This document shows positions 9,009 to 61,861 of a stretch of 64,000 bases of DNA, piece after piece; the first letter of the stretch is position 1, and every line of letters begins with the position of its first letter. The notes below the pieces were generated by a model. It saw only the letters and a program-made list of their open reading frames with translations. It did not search any database and had not been told where the DNA came from. Position numbers and translations under genes: made by a program. The stretch spans positions 47,926,001 to 47,990,000 of the forward strand of contig NC_043003.1 of the NCBI RefSeq assembly GCF_006345805.1. Reading direction: 5' to 3'. This DNA is from Octopus sinensis (Eukaryota).

Positions 9009-10183
9009 GGTATATATATATATATATATGGAAAATAGGGACGGAACGTTCTTCCCAAGTCATAAGACTCATTTCTTGGATTCAGTGACATATATATCTC
9101 CCACCAGACCAGATGCCAGTCTGGTGCCACATTATTCTTCTTTGCCAGCTAAGTGAACTGGAACAATGAAGTGTTTTGCTCAAGAATACGATGCATTTCT
9201 CATTCCAGGAATGTTCTTATAATTATGAAAGCTACACTCTAACCACTAAGCCATGTGCCTCAGGACCACAAAAAAAAAAAACCTGTGCTAGTCTACATGA
9301 AACCGTGCCAGTCCATGTAAAATATACAAAGCATGCATGCTAGTCCACATAAAAACCATCTGTGACAGTATATGTAAAAACCACCAGTGCTGGTACCACG
9401 TAAAAAGTACCCAGCACACTCTGTAAGGTGGTTGGTGTTAGGAAGGGCATTCAGACGTAGACACCAACCCAAACCAGACTGGAACCAGGTGCAGCTTTCC
9501 AGCATGCCAGCTCTGGTCAAACCATCCAACCCACGCCAGCATAGAAAACAGACGTTAAATGATGATGATGATGATAATGATTTACACATGCATACAAATA
9601 CATACACACACACTTCCTTGCACAGGCAAGGCTGTGTGGTCAAGAAATTTGTTTTTTCAACCATATGGTTTCAGGTTCAGTCCCACTGTACAGCACCTGA
9701 GCAAAATGTCTTCTACTATAGCTCCAGATTCTGAGTGGATTTGGTACAGACAGACAGACAGACTAACTGTGTGTATGCATGTATGTATGTATGTATGTAT
9801 GTATGTCATTATTCAGTTTTATTTCAAGATTTCTTGCCAATAGAGAATGAGCCAATTTCTAACCTAAATCTAAGGCCCCTTCATTGGAATTTAAACAACA
9901 GGGTATTTTTGCATGTTTATATATGTACAGATTTGAATGCTTTGTTGTATGTATGTATGTATTTACACATGTATGAAAGTATGTATGTATGCATATGCAT
10001 GTGTATGCATGCATGTGTGCATGTGTGTGTGTGTGTTACTGTCTCCTTGCCTTGACATCACATAATAGTTGTAAACAAATGTCTCTGTCATGTGAATAGT
10101 GTCCTTCATTCTCAATCTTCCACAAAAACACATCTAGTCTGACCCATGCAAGCAAGAAGAAGGGGATGTTAAAACAATGATAA

Positions 10184-14731: not shown

Positions 14732-16415
14732 TAATTCTTTTATTGGCCACAAGGGCTGACAAAAATTAATTATAACAAAAAAGGGACAAAACAGGATGAA
14801 AGGTTACAAAGGGTTTTGTCCATTTGTAAAAAAACCACGTAAAAACAGTGTAACAATCAAAAAGTATAACAACGAAAAACTCCCAATAGGGGGAGGCGCT
14901 TCGAAAGGTTCCTGGTGGAAAAACCCATAAAAGCCAACGGGATTCTGGTCAAAAGTGGAATAGAGAGCCCCTTTCTCCTTTTATATTACCTTTTTAAATC
15001 ACAGATGTAACCTCAGAATGGCTCTTTTCATACTAGCCATTCTTGCGACATTTATCCACCTTTCAGTAAACTTGCTATCGGACAGCACTTCCCTCTCTAC
15101 TCTCATCTTCCTTTTCAAGTGAAACTTGAAAAAGTTGATGAGGCCTGGGCCAAAGAGGAAAGTGTCTGACCTTAGCCTTTTCAAACGGGTCCACCATACC
15201 ACCCCTTTCGCTACAGTCACTAGGCAAAGGAAAACTGCCTTGCCCTCCCGGTTAACCCTTTCGTTACTGTATTTCTGACCAAAATACACCCCTTATGTGT
15301 TTCAATTAATTTCTAACGTAATCATAAATTTAGTCTGGTTTCATTAAACAACTATAACTTTTTTATTTATCAATATATTAATCTGATTTTTGGAAGATAA
15401 TTTAATGAAATATTCTCAACCAATTCTATACTATAATTTTTGTCACAAAGTGACTCTAATTGCAGGTAGATACAGGTAAATTCAACAAAATATAAAATTA
15501 AAATTTTGTTCAAACATCGCTATAGAAAATGGGTTATTCAATTGGGTATACAACAAAATTTTATGATAGAATTTGTTATTCTGGGTAACTTTCTGATACC
15601 CATAATAATATTTACGGCAAAATAGTCTTAATTTCATTTAAGGTTATGGGAAACCACAAACTATCGTTTCTTTCGCTTTGTTTACGTTTAGCGTAACGGT
15701 TCGTTTTCGCCGTAATGATTTCAAATAGGCTCATTCGAAAAAGTAAAAAGAAATAGTCTAAGGCTTTACTCCTCTGGGAAAGTCTGTGGCTTGGTCCAGT
15801 TTCTTCAGAAAAATCACCGAAAGAAACAGTTTTTAAATTTTCACTCCATTCAGGTGCCAATTCGTTTTCTTTATCGCTGTTGGAGCTCTCGAATTCACTG
15901 TTTTCACTTTCGGAAAATGAAACATCAGATTCATTATCAAATACCATGTGCTTTTTTTTTTCAGTCATAGAGTTAGATTTATGAAGGTCTTCAGTAGAAA
16001 ATCCTTCGAATTCTGACTCGCTGCTTGATATAATGAAATTCGTATCCATTTTTTGTCAGAATTACAAATTTTGAAAACACAATAGGAACAAATTTCGGAA
16101 AAAAATCTCTCAAAATTCACGGAATTAAAATTACACTTCGATTATTGTACAAAACTGTAGTTGAACTGTTTACGAAGTATAATACGTGTTTTCACGAATG
16201 TACTAAAGAGATTTGCTCTGATATTCTCATTTAAATATGAATAGGTAAATTCGGGCGGCTTTGGGCGGTTTGGTCACATTAACCAAAATTTTTTTCGGGC
16301 GGCTTTGGGCGGTTTGGTAACGAAAGGGTTAAAGGAGGTCGGCGGGGCAATCCTCACTATGGATTCAGCTGATAGCCGGATCCGTCCTATACGCGACAGT
16401 AGCTGTTCGACATAA
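14700..16415 (-). mobile_element. 5'-truncated LINE (L1/Tx1-like ORF2 C-terminus and 3'UTR) interrupted by piggyBac
   Basis: Frame reads through the TTAA junction (...IAPPTSF-NREGKAVFLCLVTVAKGVVWWTR...FTERW); (AAT)n tail at the left; ATGCTAATAAT occurs on both flanks (probable TSD). Confidence 0.65.
15256..16328 (-). mobile_element. Internally deleted piggyBac transposon
   Basis: TTAA duplication (15252-15255, 16329-16332), 12-bp TIR CCCTTTCGTTAC, subterminal direct repeats TTCGGGCGGCTTTGGGCGGTTTGGT; ORF 15612-16049 encodes a PGBD-type transposase N-terminus (ALDYFFLLF...TNRYA...WFPITLNEIK). Confidence 0.9.
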
Positions 16416-39102: not shown

Positions 39103-40240
39103 TTGAGTGTGTGTATGTTTGGGTCTTGCCGAAAGAGCAAGGTAATATAATAAATAAATAATTTACTATAAAGCCTTGATTTTGTAAGGACTGGGTCGGG
39201 TATAGTCGATTGAACCAACTTCAGTACTAGACCGATTCTTATTTTATCGACCCCGAACAACGAAGAAACGAAAGACAGAACTGACGAGACTAAAATACTT
39301 AAAGCATGTCATTCCATCAACCTGATATCTTTTTTCTTGGATTACCCTGAAGAAAAAGGATCTCAGCGAAGAGGAAACGCGAGTCTGAGGCGTTCTGACT
39401 TTTCTTTGAAGACATTAGCAAAATAATGATGCTCAAAGTATCAAAATTATGTAATAAATAATGATGAAAAGTAAACAGTTGAAACTCCAGGCTTCAATTG
39501 TTTAGCAAAAAAAAAAATTATAAAGATAAATAAATTAAAAAATGATTAAAAAAAACAAAATAGGTGAGATGAGATGAAAGCATAATTATGAAACAGATCC
39601 ATATATCACAAAAGTCCTCCTATAAAGAAATTAATTAATGTAATTAAAACAGAGGAGTTTAAACGAGCTAAGTGTCTATTAGCTGTGTCAGATTAATTTC
39701 ATAATAAAAACTTAAGAGAAGTTATTTTCATACTCAGGAATATTTTTTCAACTTACAGAAAGCTTCCTATATTCTTTCGCATGTTTATATATTTGTATAT
39801 AGCTTTTTTTTTTTCAACGTGATATCGTAAAAGTAATGATAAATATCACCATTATGCTATTAACATAACATTTTGCATAACATTTCAATGGGATCGCAGA
39901 CACAATAATAGCAAGTTTTGCTATTATACAGTAGCAAGTGACTCAAATGTAGAACTACAGTTCGATGTTACATCAAGGTGAGCACTTTCTCCAGATCAAT
40001 AAATGAAGAGAGAGTTTACATCACAGTAAAAATTTTAGTCTGTAATTGAACTTTTCTTTTTCCTGTCACTTGTTTTGTTTTCTTTTTTTTTTCCGCAATT
40101 TATTCTTTGCTGTCTGTTTTGAATTCTTAGAAGAGCTGGTTCCTTCATTATCAGCATCAGTAAAATTGTCCAAACGCGTAGTTCTCCAACGGACAGCGAA
40201 TTCACGTGTCGAGTGGACAAACGGGAACAAAGAAGGAGAA

Positions 40241-40254
40241 ATACTCACTCCAGG
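40241..40254 (-). other. Strong splice donor 56 nt downstream of the ORF stop
   Basis: Minus strand CCTGGA|GTGAGTAT, GT at 40248-40247. Confidence 0.5.
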
Positions 40255-40304
40255 GTATATGAGTAAATAAGTAAGTGGTCAACAACTCCTTTAGAATGCC
40301 AGGT

Positions 40305-41045
40305 TCATGCTTTACACTCGTGGAAGTTTATCATGGGTCCCTGAGTTAAATCAGAGAAAGACGACCTGAAAGAATAAGACTGAGATGACTGATACAACAT
40401 TTTCAGATTCTGACGATCTTCTTCGGTTAACGTTTCCAGCAAATCGTGCAAAGCATTTCGTCGGGTACGACACCTGGAGAAATTATTATGGTCCGGAGAT
40501 AACAGCTCTGGTGTAGGGTCGTCGGGAAAATTTATAGTTAACATTTCAGCAGATGGTGATAAGTTGGAAGAATCGAAGTTGGGAGAAGAAATTAACTGGC
40601 AGCTGGAAGTCGATGAAGTTGCCGCTGTACAGATGTTTGTTAAACAACTTGGTCGATTAGCATCTCGGCAAAGGGGTAAGCTGCTTCCACCAAGTCTTTC
40701 CTCCCGACTAATTTGTAGGGATAGTACTTTCGTAGTTTCTTTACAGCTTGTTGTACCACGATTTGGCAAGTTTTCTGAACTTTGCGACAGTTCTTGATCC
40801 GTATTTTCGGTACATTGTCTCAGATCTTCAGTTCCAAACTCGTCCAAGTCGTCATCCGACATGCTATCCACTTCACCATCACTATTCAAATTAGATTCAT
40901 TTCTGTGTAATAAAAAATCTCTGACGAATTTTTGGCGATTTTCTATACTTTCAAAGATATCAGCCATACCATTTCGTCGCATTCTACGAGGGTAAGATTT
41001 TAATGAAACCGACTCCCTTTTTTCTTGCTGTTCACCACCAGTCAT
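40305..41045 (-). CDS. Single-exon 246-aa Ser-rich, probably disordered protein with two PKI-like pseudosubstrate repeats
   Basis: Longest non-repeat ORF in the window (track 40305..41135); first ATG at 41045 (MTGGEQQEKRE...), TGA at 40305-40307. Internal repeat RRMRRNGMADIFESIENRQ / RCRTRRNALHDLLETLTEEDRQ resembles PKI GRTGRRNAIHDIL. Lies downstream of a promoter-like region. Confidence 0.8.
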   Translation of the reverse strand: MTGGEQQEKRESVSLKSYPRRMRRNGMADIFESIENRQKFVRDFLLHRNESNLNSDGEVDSMSDDDLDEFGTEDLRQCTENTDQELSQSSENLPNRGTTSCKETTKVLSLQISREERLGGSSLPLCRDANRPSCLTNICTAATSSTSSCQLISSPNFDSSNLSPSAEMLTINFPDDPTPELLSPDHNNFSRCRTRRNALHDLLETLTEEDRQNLKMLYQSSQSYSFRSSFSDLTQGPMINFHECKA

Positions 41046-41138
41046 TGTGTAATATGTATTAAAATATAAAATCAGTTCGGTTGAAAAGTATCTTCGGTTC
41101 AATCCTGTTGATGTTTGAGTGAAATAATTGAACAAGCT

Positions 41139-41218
41139 TCTGTTAGTTTGTTTGTATGAGAGAGAGATTTCTTAGCGTCAATACAGAACGAAGGCTTTTG
41201 TAGCACTAGACAGCTCAC
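41139..41218 (-). other. Putative 80-bp 5'UTR intron
   Basis: Minus-strand donor GAG|GTGAGC at 41218 and acceptor ...ctctctcatacaaacaaactaacag| ending at 41139. Confidence 0.35.
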
Positions 41219-41249
41219 CTCAAGTAATTGCTTAATAACTAGTCAGTAA

Positions 41250-41385
41250 GAATACCAATCGATTAAAAGCTTCGACTACCGGTTATCAGCCAATCAAAAC
41301 GCTCGTGTGCACCAGAAAACGTGACGTCAGCATAGAAGCGGGTTTTCCTCCCCACTTCACCTCCCGTATTAACGGACTTCCTCTT
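41250..41385 (-). promoter_or_regulatory. Proximal promoter with full CRE, two CCAAT boxes and an ETS-type core
   Basis: TGACGTCA at 41322-41329 (context TGCTGACGTCAC on minus); CCAAT at 41255-41259 and 41290-41294 (AGCCAATCA); ACTTCC at 41376-41381; CpG-retaining, 200-340 bp upstream of the ATG. Confidence 0.65.
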
Positions 41386-43041
41386 TTTTCCCCAGTAGTT
41401 TCATTTTATTCATGAGAAAAGAAAAAGAAATCACATTTTGACTGCGACCTCACCCATGTCTTAGTGATTCTGTTTAGAAATTCACGCCTGAATGAAAAAT
41501 TCTAAATAAAGTCTGCCGAGATGCAAACCAACCAGAATACTAAGAGAGTGGTGGTACTGGTGGAAGGGAAAACCGAGAATAAACGTGACGAGCAATTAAT
41601 GACACATGTTTGACAAGCTCGTCATTAATTGCTCACCACCATCGCCGGCTAACTAGATAGTATTCTCATTAGCTCGGTCTGGTTACGACGTTGGAATCAA
41701 GGTCAGGAAATCGCTGCTTGTTAGTGGTTTTAGGATGGATATTAGAACCAAACATATATGCAAATGTTTATACTTGCGTACCACATATACGGAAATGTTT
41801 ACACACGCAACACGTGAATATTTATTTATATACACATACGAACACACACACACATGCTCGTGATGTATTATAGATATGTTTTCATATAAACACAAACAAT
41901 TCACTTTCTGTTGCAGACATGCATACATTCACATATCTTTGTTAATTTTACGCATGTCATCTTAAAATAAAACCCAAAAGTGATATAGATGCACACGTAC
42001 ATATATTTATGCATAAATTAAAATGCGTATAGATGCATACACGATAATTGTACACACATATACACACACACACCGTCTCTCTCTCTCTCTCCCTCTCTGT
42101 GTATTACAATTTGAACGGTAAGTTAATGAATAAATAATGTGGTATATCTAAATAAGGCTGGCACACTACAGCAAGGTGTAGCCCTGGATATTTCCCCCGT
42201 TTAGCAGCAGAAAATACCGCTACGCCAACGCTAGCTGCATGATAATGATTTGTTTATTGTCGATTTCATCGATCTCGTTAATTGGTATGGCCATGGAAGG
42301 ATTTGAACTCAGAAAGTAAACGGACATAACTTGATACAAGACTTTGTTAATTCTGCAAATCACCACCCTTAGCAGATGCACAACAATAATTTGTTGGTGT
42401 CAGGAATATTACTCGTACAAGTTTTGAGTAGAGGACCTGCAGTACGCATTAGTAATGCAAAGTACCCAATGTGATGCGTTATCGTCTGCGGGGTCATACC
42501 CGTTCTAGGTGTTTGCATAATATTGACTTCTTACATAGAAACAGTTTTATATTTATAAGTGGCGAATACGCATATTAGTGGCGGTAAATCTATGCCTTTT
42601 TCAAAAGGATGAACAACATAAATGAAATTATCTACAAAGATTCGAAACCGAGAACATGGCACCAGTTCACCACGAGCATATTTCCGCTGCATAAAAGTAA
42701 ATCTAATGATTTTTAGTATTGGCACAAGATCACGTATTACGGGAGTGCCGCTTTTACCGGCACAGAATGAAAAGGGGGTGGGGGTCTTATTTTATTGATC
42801 TCAGGAGGACGAAAGGCAGGGTTGGCTGATCGTAATATGAACTCAGATCCTAAAAGCATTTTGCCCTGCATCCGAATATCTGTATGTATAGGCGCAGGAG
42901 TGGCTGTGTGGTAAGTAGCTTGTTTACCAACTACACGGTTCTGGGTTCAGTCCCACTGCGTGGCATCTACTATAGCCTCGGGCCGACCAAGGCCTTGTGA
43001 GAGGATTTGGTAGACGGAAACTGAAAGAAGCCCGTCGTGTG

Positions 43042-60620: not shown

Positions 60621-61861
60621 ATGGGGTTGGATAAATTAATGGAAACACCTTAAAATTTCAAACAAATTAATTTTAATATGGGTCAGGGCGGCCTTTGGCA
60701 GTAATTACAGCTTGAATTCTATGAGGTATGGGCTCGTACAAAGTTTGAATTGCTTCCAAAGGAACTTTTGTCCATTCTTCAGCTAAAACAGTCTCCACTT
60801 CTTGTAGTGATGATGGTGGAGGATATTGACTCCTTACTTGTTTTCCTAAAATGTACCGTAAATGTTCAATAATATTGAGATCTGGGGACTGTGGTGGCCA
60901 GATAAGATGTTCAACCTCACTAGAATGTTCCTCGCGCCATTCAGTAACAATTTTAGCTGTGTGAATTGGTGCATTATCATCCTGAAAGATTGCGTTTCTT
61001 TCTGGAAACAGTTCCACAACCATAGGATGAATTTGATCAGATAAAATAGTCTTGACTATTAATTCTGTCATGAAGGGAAACCACTGGGCTGGAAGATTTC
61101 CAAGATATAGCTCCCCACCCCACCCTGATCATCTTAGATCCTCCTCCATGTTTAACAGTTGGAAGAAGGCAGTCTGGGTCAAATGCTTCCTTTGGCTGTT
61201 TCCACACATATACTCGGCCAGTGGTTGGAAATAAGGTAAAGGATGACTCGTCTGAGACAATAACATTCTTCCACTGCTCTAGAGAGCTATCCTGTAGGTT
61301 TTTACTCCACTCTAAATGCTTTCCAACGTCTGTTTTTGAAAGTAGTGGTTTTCTGATTGCAGCCCTCCCGTGAAATCTGGCTTTGTGCAGCTCTTGGCAA
61401 ACAGTTTTTGTGGAAACTGGGTTCTCGAGGTGGTCATTAAGCTCTGCAGTAATTTTGAGAGCTGTACTTTTGTGATCCTTTGTAACAATTTGCATAGGAG
61501 TCTGACAGTCCCTATCTGAAAGTTTTGGTTTTCTTCCAGAATTTTGTTTTGACATGGAGGTTTTTCCCTCTTTCTCAAAGGCTGTCATTACTTTCGAGAT
61601 AGTACTTCTTGATACACCAAACATTTTGGTTGTTTTTGTTACACTAGCACCTGCCACACGAGAATCATCAGTTTGACCTCTTTTAATGAATTTTGATTAC
61701 CTTTTTCTGATGATATCAGAAAAGAAACAGCAATTTTAGCTAAACATATTAAGCAGCACTAATAATAAATAAAAAAACACAAAATAAAGAAGCTTTTGAT
61801 GGTTTTATAGATATTTCAAAATTATGATGGTAGTTGTTTCCATTATTTTGTCCAACTCATG
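60621..61861 (-). mobile_element. Full-length, frameshifted Tc1 (DD34E) transposon
   Basis: ORFs 61037-61657 and 60673-61071 give the HTH region, SDES, QDDNAPIH and WPPQSPDLNIIE; imperfect TIRs ~GTTGGA(C/T)AAA.TAATGGAAACA with TA flanks. Confidence 0.92.

Follow-up and report, generated by a model that had tools for sequence, protein, structure and literature searches.

We read P0001, the product of a single-exon gene in the 64,000-base stretch of Octopus sinensis DNA analyzed here (the window), as a multivalent and probably CREB-induced PKA-C pseudosubstrate inhibitor that is PKI-like in action and lies outside the PKI family; our confidence in this reading is rather better than even. Binding to and inhibition of PKA-C by P0001 are judged likely, and activity at both of its sites would be an even call. 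The gene product comprises two repeats joined by a linker:

41045-40305, minus strand: single-exon ORF P0001, 246 aa plus stop, from translation; co-linear relatives have the same start and the C-terminal FHECKA.
40902..40988, minus strand: repeat 1, aa 20-48, with Arg at P-6, a candidate RRNG-M pseudosite at aa 23-27 and a predicted helix at 28-48.
40473..40901, minus strand: Ser/Thr/acidic linker, aa 49-191, predicted disordered and poorly conserved.
40386..40472, minus strand: repeat 2, aa 192-220, with a candidate RRNA-L pseudosite at aa 195-199, LHDLLETLT, and predicted helices at 198-204 and 208-220.

Translation of 41045-40305 on the minus strand returned 246 aa and a stop, and the RR codons lie where the initial annotation had placed them, at 40974-40979 (RRNG from aa 23) and 40458-40463 (RRNA from aa 195). 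Its description of a Ser/Thr/acidic linker was reproduced for aa 48-191 (26% Ser+Thr, 17% Asp+Glu), as was its placement of the upstream aromatics, Tyr at P-8 of motif 1 and Phe at P-9 of motif 2, with the P-11 aromatic absent in P0001. The E[N/D]RQ tail that it had included in both motifs is present in this species and is not conserved, O. bimaculoides reading EDHEK and EADCEK there, and was therefore rejected as part of the motif; what is conserved beyond RRN[G/A] is a longer helical extension of hydrophobic and acidic residues. Structure prediction with AlphaFold2 from a 12-row alignment gave mostly disorder (mean pLDDT 47.9, and below 50 over most of the linker), with the three helices listed above coming directly after the motifs. 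A Cys near aa 134 (within aa 133-135) and a C-terminal P..F/FHECKA element (aa 237-246) are also conserved in the cephalopod-type proteins. Assignment to an unrelated family, which the initial annotation had named as a refutation, was not found: Pfam gave sub-threshold matches only, a single-sequence search of the PDB gave none, and the ESM Atlas gave no usable match for P0001 or P0018, a result that says nothing on novelty or absence. Overall the interpretation in the initial annotation is partly supported; four points lie beyond it, namely membership in a multi-repeat family, an upstream CRE that a paralogue also has, the likeness of the repeat to Pfam TC1 and the fit of these residues to an APC/C D-box core.

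A word-based search yielded 6 relatives of P0001 among 334 candidates (230-251 aa, co-linear from Met1 to FHECKA), consisting of an uncharacterized O. bimaculoides protein at 85% identity, one more at 80% and four distant proteins at ~37%. A profile of five orthologues searched against 1.84 billion representatives gave 8 matches at E <= 0.001, 5 of them new and 4 of these with several matched stretches, and a 10-row repeat profile gave 24 matches among 3,712 candidates, of which 13 were new. Named members of the family include two proteins of Octopus bimaculoides, one of Argonauta hians and two of Dreissena polymorpha (DPMN_156567, DPMN_156572), and the number of repeat copies per protein ranges from 1 to 7. 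The tree of 12 cephalopod-type proteins separates two paralogue groups with support 100/100. P0014 and P0024, Dreissena proteins of four repeats each that are almost identical, have locus numbers lying close together and come from contigs of equal length, which suggests a tandem cluster. P0006, P0007 and P0010-P0012 carry Trp after FHECKA and were rejected as truly longer forms; a mis-translated TGA stop is the adopted reading since their cluster mate P0009 stops at 230 aa. No relatives of P0029 were found in a metagenome scan, and the multi-repeat proteins P0018 and P0029 used as queries against the octopus's own genome returned nothing.

Conservation, expressed as identity to P0001, peaks on the motifs and not on the linker, an outcome on which the initial annotation had staked its reading. 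Identity in distant orthologues and paralogues, respectively, was 0.88 and 0.81 for the motif 2 core, 0.49 and 0.51 for the motif 1 core, and 0.22 and 0.13 for the linker (aa 48-191). RRNALH and LLETLT of motif 2 are invariant in 12/12 aligned proteins, and motif 1, which is RRNGM in P0001, reads RRNAM or RRNAL in orthologues. Several relatives have true PKA consensus sites (RRLS, RRFS, RRRS) close to their pseudosites or between them, 13-18 aa before motif 2 in P0022, P0023 and P0025 and also in P0014, P0027 and P0028, and these could give phospho-regulation there; P0001 has none.

The repeat across the family is ~21 residues long (RRx[A/G]Lx[D/N]IFxxLxxxxIxxL), continuing after P+1 as [D/N]-I-F-x-G-[L/I/V]-x-x-[E/D]-[E/D]-I-x-x-L, and its conservation spans P-3 to P+17. 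Repeats were collected by scanning 21 proteins with P-1 to P+2 left free, omitting redundant or partial sequences (P0006-8, P0010-13, P0017, P0019-21, P0030 and P0031); the scan gave 60 sites, reduced to 59 by dropping one spurious overlap (P0018 position 100); motif 1 of P0022 and of P0023, which by eye is RRNAL in each, escaped its pattern. RR was present in 59/59 repeats, P0 was Ala in 50 and Gly in 9, P+1 was hydrophobic in 54/59 and P-1 was variable; Ser or Thr at P0 of relatives, which the initial annotation had listed as evidence against itself, occurred in 0/59. RR with Ala/Gly at P0 was likewise retained in 41/41 distinct repeats after collapsing at 70% identity. A profile of P+2..P+18 only, trained with omission of just the protein being scored so that close kin stayed in training, found 56 sites at score >=5 among 4,512 positions, with RR and Ala/Gly upstream in 56/56. 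This invariance is partly built in, because the relatives were found with RRxA-containing profiles and kin remained in training. At the level of sequence, fixed RR, Ala/Gly at P0 and a free P-1 is the pattern of a PKA pseudosubstrate.

The published PKA pseudosubstrate consensus is R-R-X-(A/G)-hydrophobic (excerpt of PMC5059767), which P0001 carries as RRNGM and RRNAL. Gly is used by the RI-beta pseudosubstrate (excerpt of PMC6143667), and EBV BNLF2b requires an RRNAL motif to inhibit PKA (excerpt of bioRxiv 2026.08.23.746553). When the repeat profile was compared with the PDB, the top three matches were PKI-alpha (best E 0.0055). A PKA-C gene was found in the octopus's own genome, and the O. 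bimaculoides PKA-C protein was used for folding, in complex with P0001 aa 181-224, ATP and Mg, without alignments and with three controls. The complex scored 0.43 versus 0.02 for the best control, with partner pLDDT of at least 56 and runs agreeing in at least 63% of contacts. This is a weak pass of a mark reached by 51/78 solved pairs and 2/108 mismatched pairs, and passes with complex scores below 0.60 are more often wrong than right unless the pairing is likely beforehand. The complex prediction proposed in the initial annotation thus gave weak support, with a score short of 0.60 that may reflect no more than the solved PKI complexes, and the prediction reported no interface.

In the proposed mechanism, the Arg pair at P-3/P-2 would engage the acidic cleft of PKA-C, Leu or Met at P+1 would occupy the P+1 pocket, and the kinase would stay bound because P0 offers no hydroxyl. 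The acidic amphipathic helix after each site could add contacts or recruit a partner, and with several sites per chain one molecule would titrate several C subunits. In PKI, Phe at P-11 and Arg at P-6 are high-affinity determinants. Among the 59 repeats a P-11 aromatic occurs in 10 and P-6 Arg in 14; by eye, the aromatic is found in motif 1 of P0004, P0005, P0009 and P0026 and in motif 2 of P0004, P0005, P0009, P0015, P0022 and P0023. P-6 Arg is present in motif 1 of 9/10 two-motif proteins where that position is listed, and P0004, P0005 and P0009 combine both determinants in motif 1. P0001 has Leu at P-11 and Arg at P-6 in motif 1 and neither a P-11 aromatic nor P-6 Arg in motif 2, and modest affinity per site is likely, since the P-6 Arg of motif 1 is the only one of these determinants that it holds. 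PKI(5-24) has both Phe at P-11 and Arg at P-6 (excerpt of PMC5059767), and binding by Smoothened is ~0.8-0.9 uM versus 1.1 nM for PKI (excerpt of bioRxiv 2021.07.05.451193). Against the PKA reading stand the strongly conserved P+2..P+17 segment, for which PKI(5-24) offers no equivalent and active-site binding no explanation, the rarity of the two PKI determinants across the family and their incomplete set in P0001, the absence of an NES pattern from P0001, and the canonical PKI gene already in this genome.

The initial annotation had suggested a non-canonical inhibitor, and the profile scores agree: P0001 reached 14.2 bits with Pfam PKI (PF02827; cut-off 25), repeat 2 gave E 0.057, the five closest relatives tested gave 15.9-20.7 bits, also below 25, and the cut-off was passed only by the three-repeat P0029 (28.1 bits). 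Canonical membership was rejected because P0001 departs from PKI in size, site number, Pfam score, P-11 and NES and because a canonical PKI first coding exon with FIASGRTGRRNAL lies elsewhere in the genome (C4:15768406, 52.7 bits), separate from P0001. The NES search, made with six crude spacing patterns, gave no match in P0001, P0002, P0004 or P0005. Another PKI-like stretch at C6:103311838 (Phe at P-11, GRRNAL, Pfam PKI 20.6 bits, below cut-off) is possibly a second PKI exon or chance.

Other loci in the genome and window were annotated as follows:

C4547:2700-3323: intact paralogue without introns, its two motifs joined by an acidic linker; 94% to O. bimaculoides A0A0L8HRC2.
C16:55453089-55453331: 3' fragment of the P0001 gene, surrounded by simple repeats; its open frame of 80 aa carries motif 2 only.
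Window 60673-61696, minus strand: Tc1/mariner-type transposase remnant in two frames, with HTH_Tnp_Tc3_2 and DDE_3 over cut-off.
Window 15612-16055, minus strand: weak Pfam match to DDE_Tnp_1_7 (14.4 bits, below cut-off), a possible transposon remnant.

The C16 fragment retains two short segments that are found in O. bimaculoides and are missing from the window copy. It differs from the P0001 gene at 11 non-synonymous and 4 synonymous codons, which suggests a decaying copy, and on the same counts a role as a functional mini-PKI was judged unlikely. Five coding variants of P0001 are listed from sequencing runs; 4 change a residue, none falls within the motifs, and the C16 copy may be the source of the variant at aa 239. 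In the PKA-C gene on C9328 the catalytic-loop exon exists in two similar, adjacent versions (9445-9735 and 662-1150, per locus piece), which are probably mutually exclusive.

Upstream of P0001, candidate regulatory elements and the apparent transcribed region are:

41322..41329, no strand assigned: perfect palindromic CRE, TGACGTCA, 277 bp upstream of the ATG of P0001.
41255..41294, no strand assigned: two CCAAT boxes, at 41255 and 41290, between the CRE and the ORF.
39119..41476, minus strand (inferred from the ORF): region under contigs of three probable RNA runs, from contig cover.

This CRE is the only perfect one in the window. A single site occurs across 120,061 bases of other loci, which sets the expectation for 500 bp at ~0.0045. 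This background is genomic and not promoter DNA; promoters hold more CREs than bulk DNA, so the figure overstates the surprise. The CCAAT boxes are weak on their own because CCAAT is common (121 in the window). The paralogue at C4547 also has a perfect CRE, at 2314, 386 bp upstream of its ATG, with a TATA box 107 bp after it (2421) and a second CRE further upstream at 720; the promoters of the two genes do not align with each other. Contigs from three runs (X1, X5 and X7), guessed to be RNA and none recorded as such, span ~39119-41276, 39119-41214 and 39175-41476, and depth upstream of them is slight or absent. In a fourth run, far larger and of a type not on record, depth continues upstream of the transcript-like region. 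Among the joints listed, the X1 contig covers the whole ORF without one; it ends 46 bp before the CRE, and the X7 contig runs across it. These contigs give a weak hint of an unspliced transcript of ~2.1-2.3 kb, among the joints listed, with a long 3' UTR carrying 8 ATTTA pentamers; the hint is weak because the runs are not recorded as RNA and the downstream end abuts a skipped repeat. The upstream CRE suggests that the gene would act as a feedback brake on cAMP signaling, and CRE-driven induction of the P0001 gene is slightly favored.

The repeats might instead serve chiefly as pseudosubstrate or docking elements of a different basophilic kinase (PKG, PRKX-like), or tether or scaffold PKA-C without silencing it, which we consider unlikely. 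Such a role would fit the high-affinity determinants of PKI (P-11 aromatic, P-6 Arg) not being family-wide and the presence of Arg/Lys at P-4..P-6 in 43/59 repeats; a second PKA-like kinase exon, presumably PRKX-like, is encoded in the genome, and a pass in complex prediction does not say which kinase family member binds. Strict RR at P-3/P-2 with a free P-1 and a hydrophobic P+1 is nevertheless the PKA consensus, the best PDB matches are PKI, and the CRE best suits a cAMP loop.

Somewhat less probable still is that the ~21-residue repeat is a coupled-folding motif of the type found in TC-1/TCIM/C8orf4 (Pfam PF15063, TC1), made for a non-kinase partner, whose RRxA start merely resembles a pseudosubstrate. 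This would account for conservation from P-3 to P+17, well past the kinase cleft, and nine of 23 family proteins scanned match TC1 in one register (14/23 without a match). With a cut-off of 27 bits, P0018 (38.4) and P0028 (27.6) passed by summed repeats, P0016 (25.8), P0029 (25.1), P0024 (24.0) and P0014 (23.2) fell below, and P0002, P0003 and P0033 were weak; no match was listed for whole P0001, and motif 1 alone gave 13.2 bits (E 0.092). The matches cover the N-terminal part of the profile (positions ~9-48) and, from the reported ranges and assuming no gaps, place the P-3 Arg at position 23 in all nine; the C-terminal half (positions 49-75) is unmatched, no best stretch extending beyond 48 in these nine proteins. 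Human TC-1 residues 32-41 are RKKAVGNIFE (excerpt of PMC11524581), and comparison by eye over residues 32-52 fits the repeat at P-3, P0 to P+7, P+11, P+13, P+16 and P+17, with mismatches at P-2, P-1 and P+8; the human residue at P-2 is Lys and not Arg, and the TC-1 papers listed deal with Chibby/Wnt and Notch2. Set against this, single-repeat TC1 scores are weak (E ~0.05-0.15), and a TC1-type motif leaves unexplained both the free P-1 and the absence of Ser/Thr at P0 in proteins whose Ser+Thr content is 17.6%. The TC1 profile also gave 22 weak matches in the octopus's own genome, none over cut-off, which lie nearly all at profile positions 36-69 and were read as noise. PMC10298883, followed as a C8orf4 lead, proved false, its C8orf4 matches being C8orf48/49.

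An array of APC/C destruction boxes (RxxLxDI), by which these proteins would be either short-lived substrates or, in the manner of Acm1 or Mes1, pseudosubstrate inhibitors of the D-box type, is improbable. RxxLxx[LIVM] fits 43/59 repeats, RxxL is present in motif 2 of P0001, and several repeats read RxALGDI or RxALGNI, with the Gly favored at D-box position 5 (excerpt of PMC3690534). Leu is replaced, however, in 16/59 repeats including motif 1 of P0001 (Met), and the extra Arg and the Ala/Gly never vary; Asn at position 9 occurs in 0/59 together with Leu, position 8 is Phe/Leu/Tyr and the preferred Ser is absent, KEN occurs in 0/21 proteins, and helices are predicted where a D-box forms a tight turn (excerpt of PMC3690534). 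That the ORF or its motifs are functionless chance features is effectively refuted by the co-linear orthologues, paralogue and multi-repeat relatives, the concentration of conservation on the motifs and the appearance of two RR-x-[AG]-hydrophobic motifs in only 0.013% of 200,000 shuffles of P0001 (0.00013), despite low language-model recognition (1230), no close Atlas cluster and runs of which none is recorded as RNA.

A broader version of the preferred reading, PKA-C inhibition by pseudosubstrate repeats, would place these proteins in an ancient family of intronless, CREB-induced immediate-early tandem-repeat PKA shut-off genes, with TC-1/TCIM and AVPI1, which we take to be a TC1 paralogue, as single-repeat descendants acting as inducible human PKA-C inhibitors; we regard this as doubtful. 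TC-1 is linked to human cancer with an unclear mechanism. It is a single-exon gene, described as restricted to jawed vertebrates (excerpt of PMC5349172), and the coding region of P0001 is intronless, with a CRE upstream; Tcim and Avpi1 are cAMP-induced (excerpts of PMC9346484, PMC12073449 and PMC8846505). TC-1 differs in having one motif with Lys at P-2, where the family has 1-7 repeats with RR. In open PMC and bioRxiv main texts, no link between TCIM or AVPI1 and pseudosubstrates and no account of the repeat family was found among the papers listed.

PKA-CREB signaling in molluscs is a classic memory model, and the family sits in this group. If the preferred reading is true, a free-standing string of 2-7 decoys whose own target pathway switches it on would be a new control of the duration and threshold of a cAMP signal. 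Binding of PKA-C by TC-1/TCIM residues ~25-52, if true, would push back the origin of TC-1, so far described as vertebrate-only.

The best reading would be new as a multivalent variant of PKA pseudosubstrate inhibition; to our knowledge, PKA pseudosubstrates are either single-site PKIs or motifs inside larger proteins. PKI alpha/beta/gamma share with P0001 the RRN[A/G]-hydrophobic-x-D/N-I/L core and predicted disorder, and differ in size and valency (76 aa with one site, versus 246 aa with two sites and 1-7 in relatives); P0001 also lacks the P-11 Phe and an NES pattern and has a conserved helix after the site. INKA1 (FAM212), an inhibitor of PAK4 with two tandem inhibitory boxes, is similar in size and a low-score feature neighbor of P0001 (0.76, below the usable level), and it acts on another kinase. 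Embedded PKA pseudosubstrates (PDE7A1, ARHGAP36, Smoothened, the RI subunits and EBV BNLF2b) inhibit PKA-C through RRx[A/G]-hydrophobic motifs outside PKI, as proposed here for P0001. PDE7A1 has two RRx[A/G]-type PKA sites (excerpt of PMC6143667), and Smoothened relies on avidity and may have a second site (excerpt of bioRxiv 2021.07.05.451193). Except for BNLF2b, these sites reside in host proteins with catalytic, receptor or cAMP-binding domains, whereas in the mollusc family the repeats and linker make up the whole protein and the repeat number ranges from 1 to 7.
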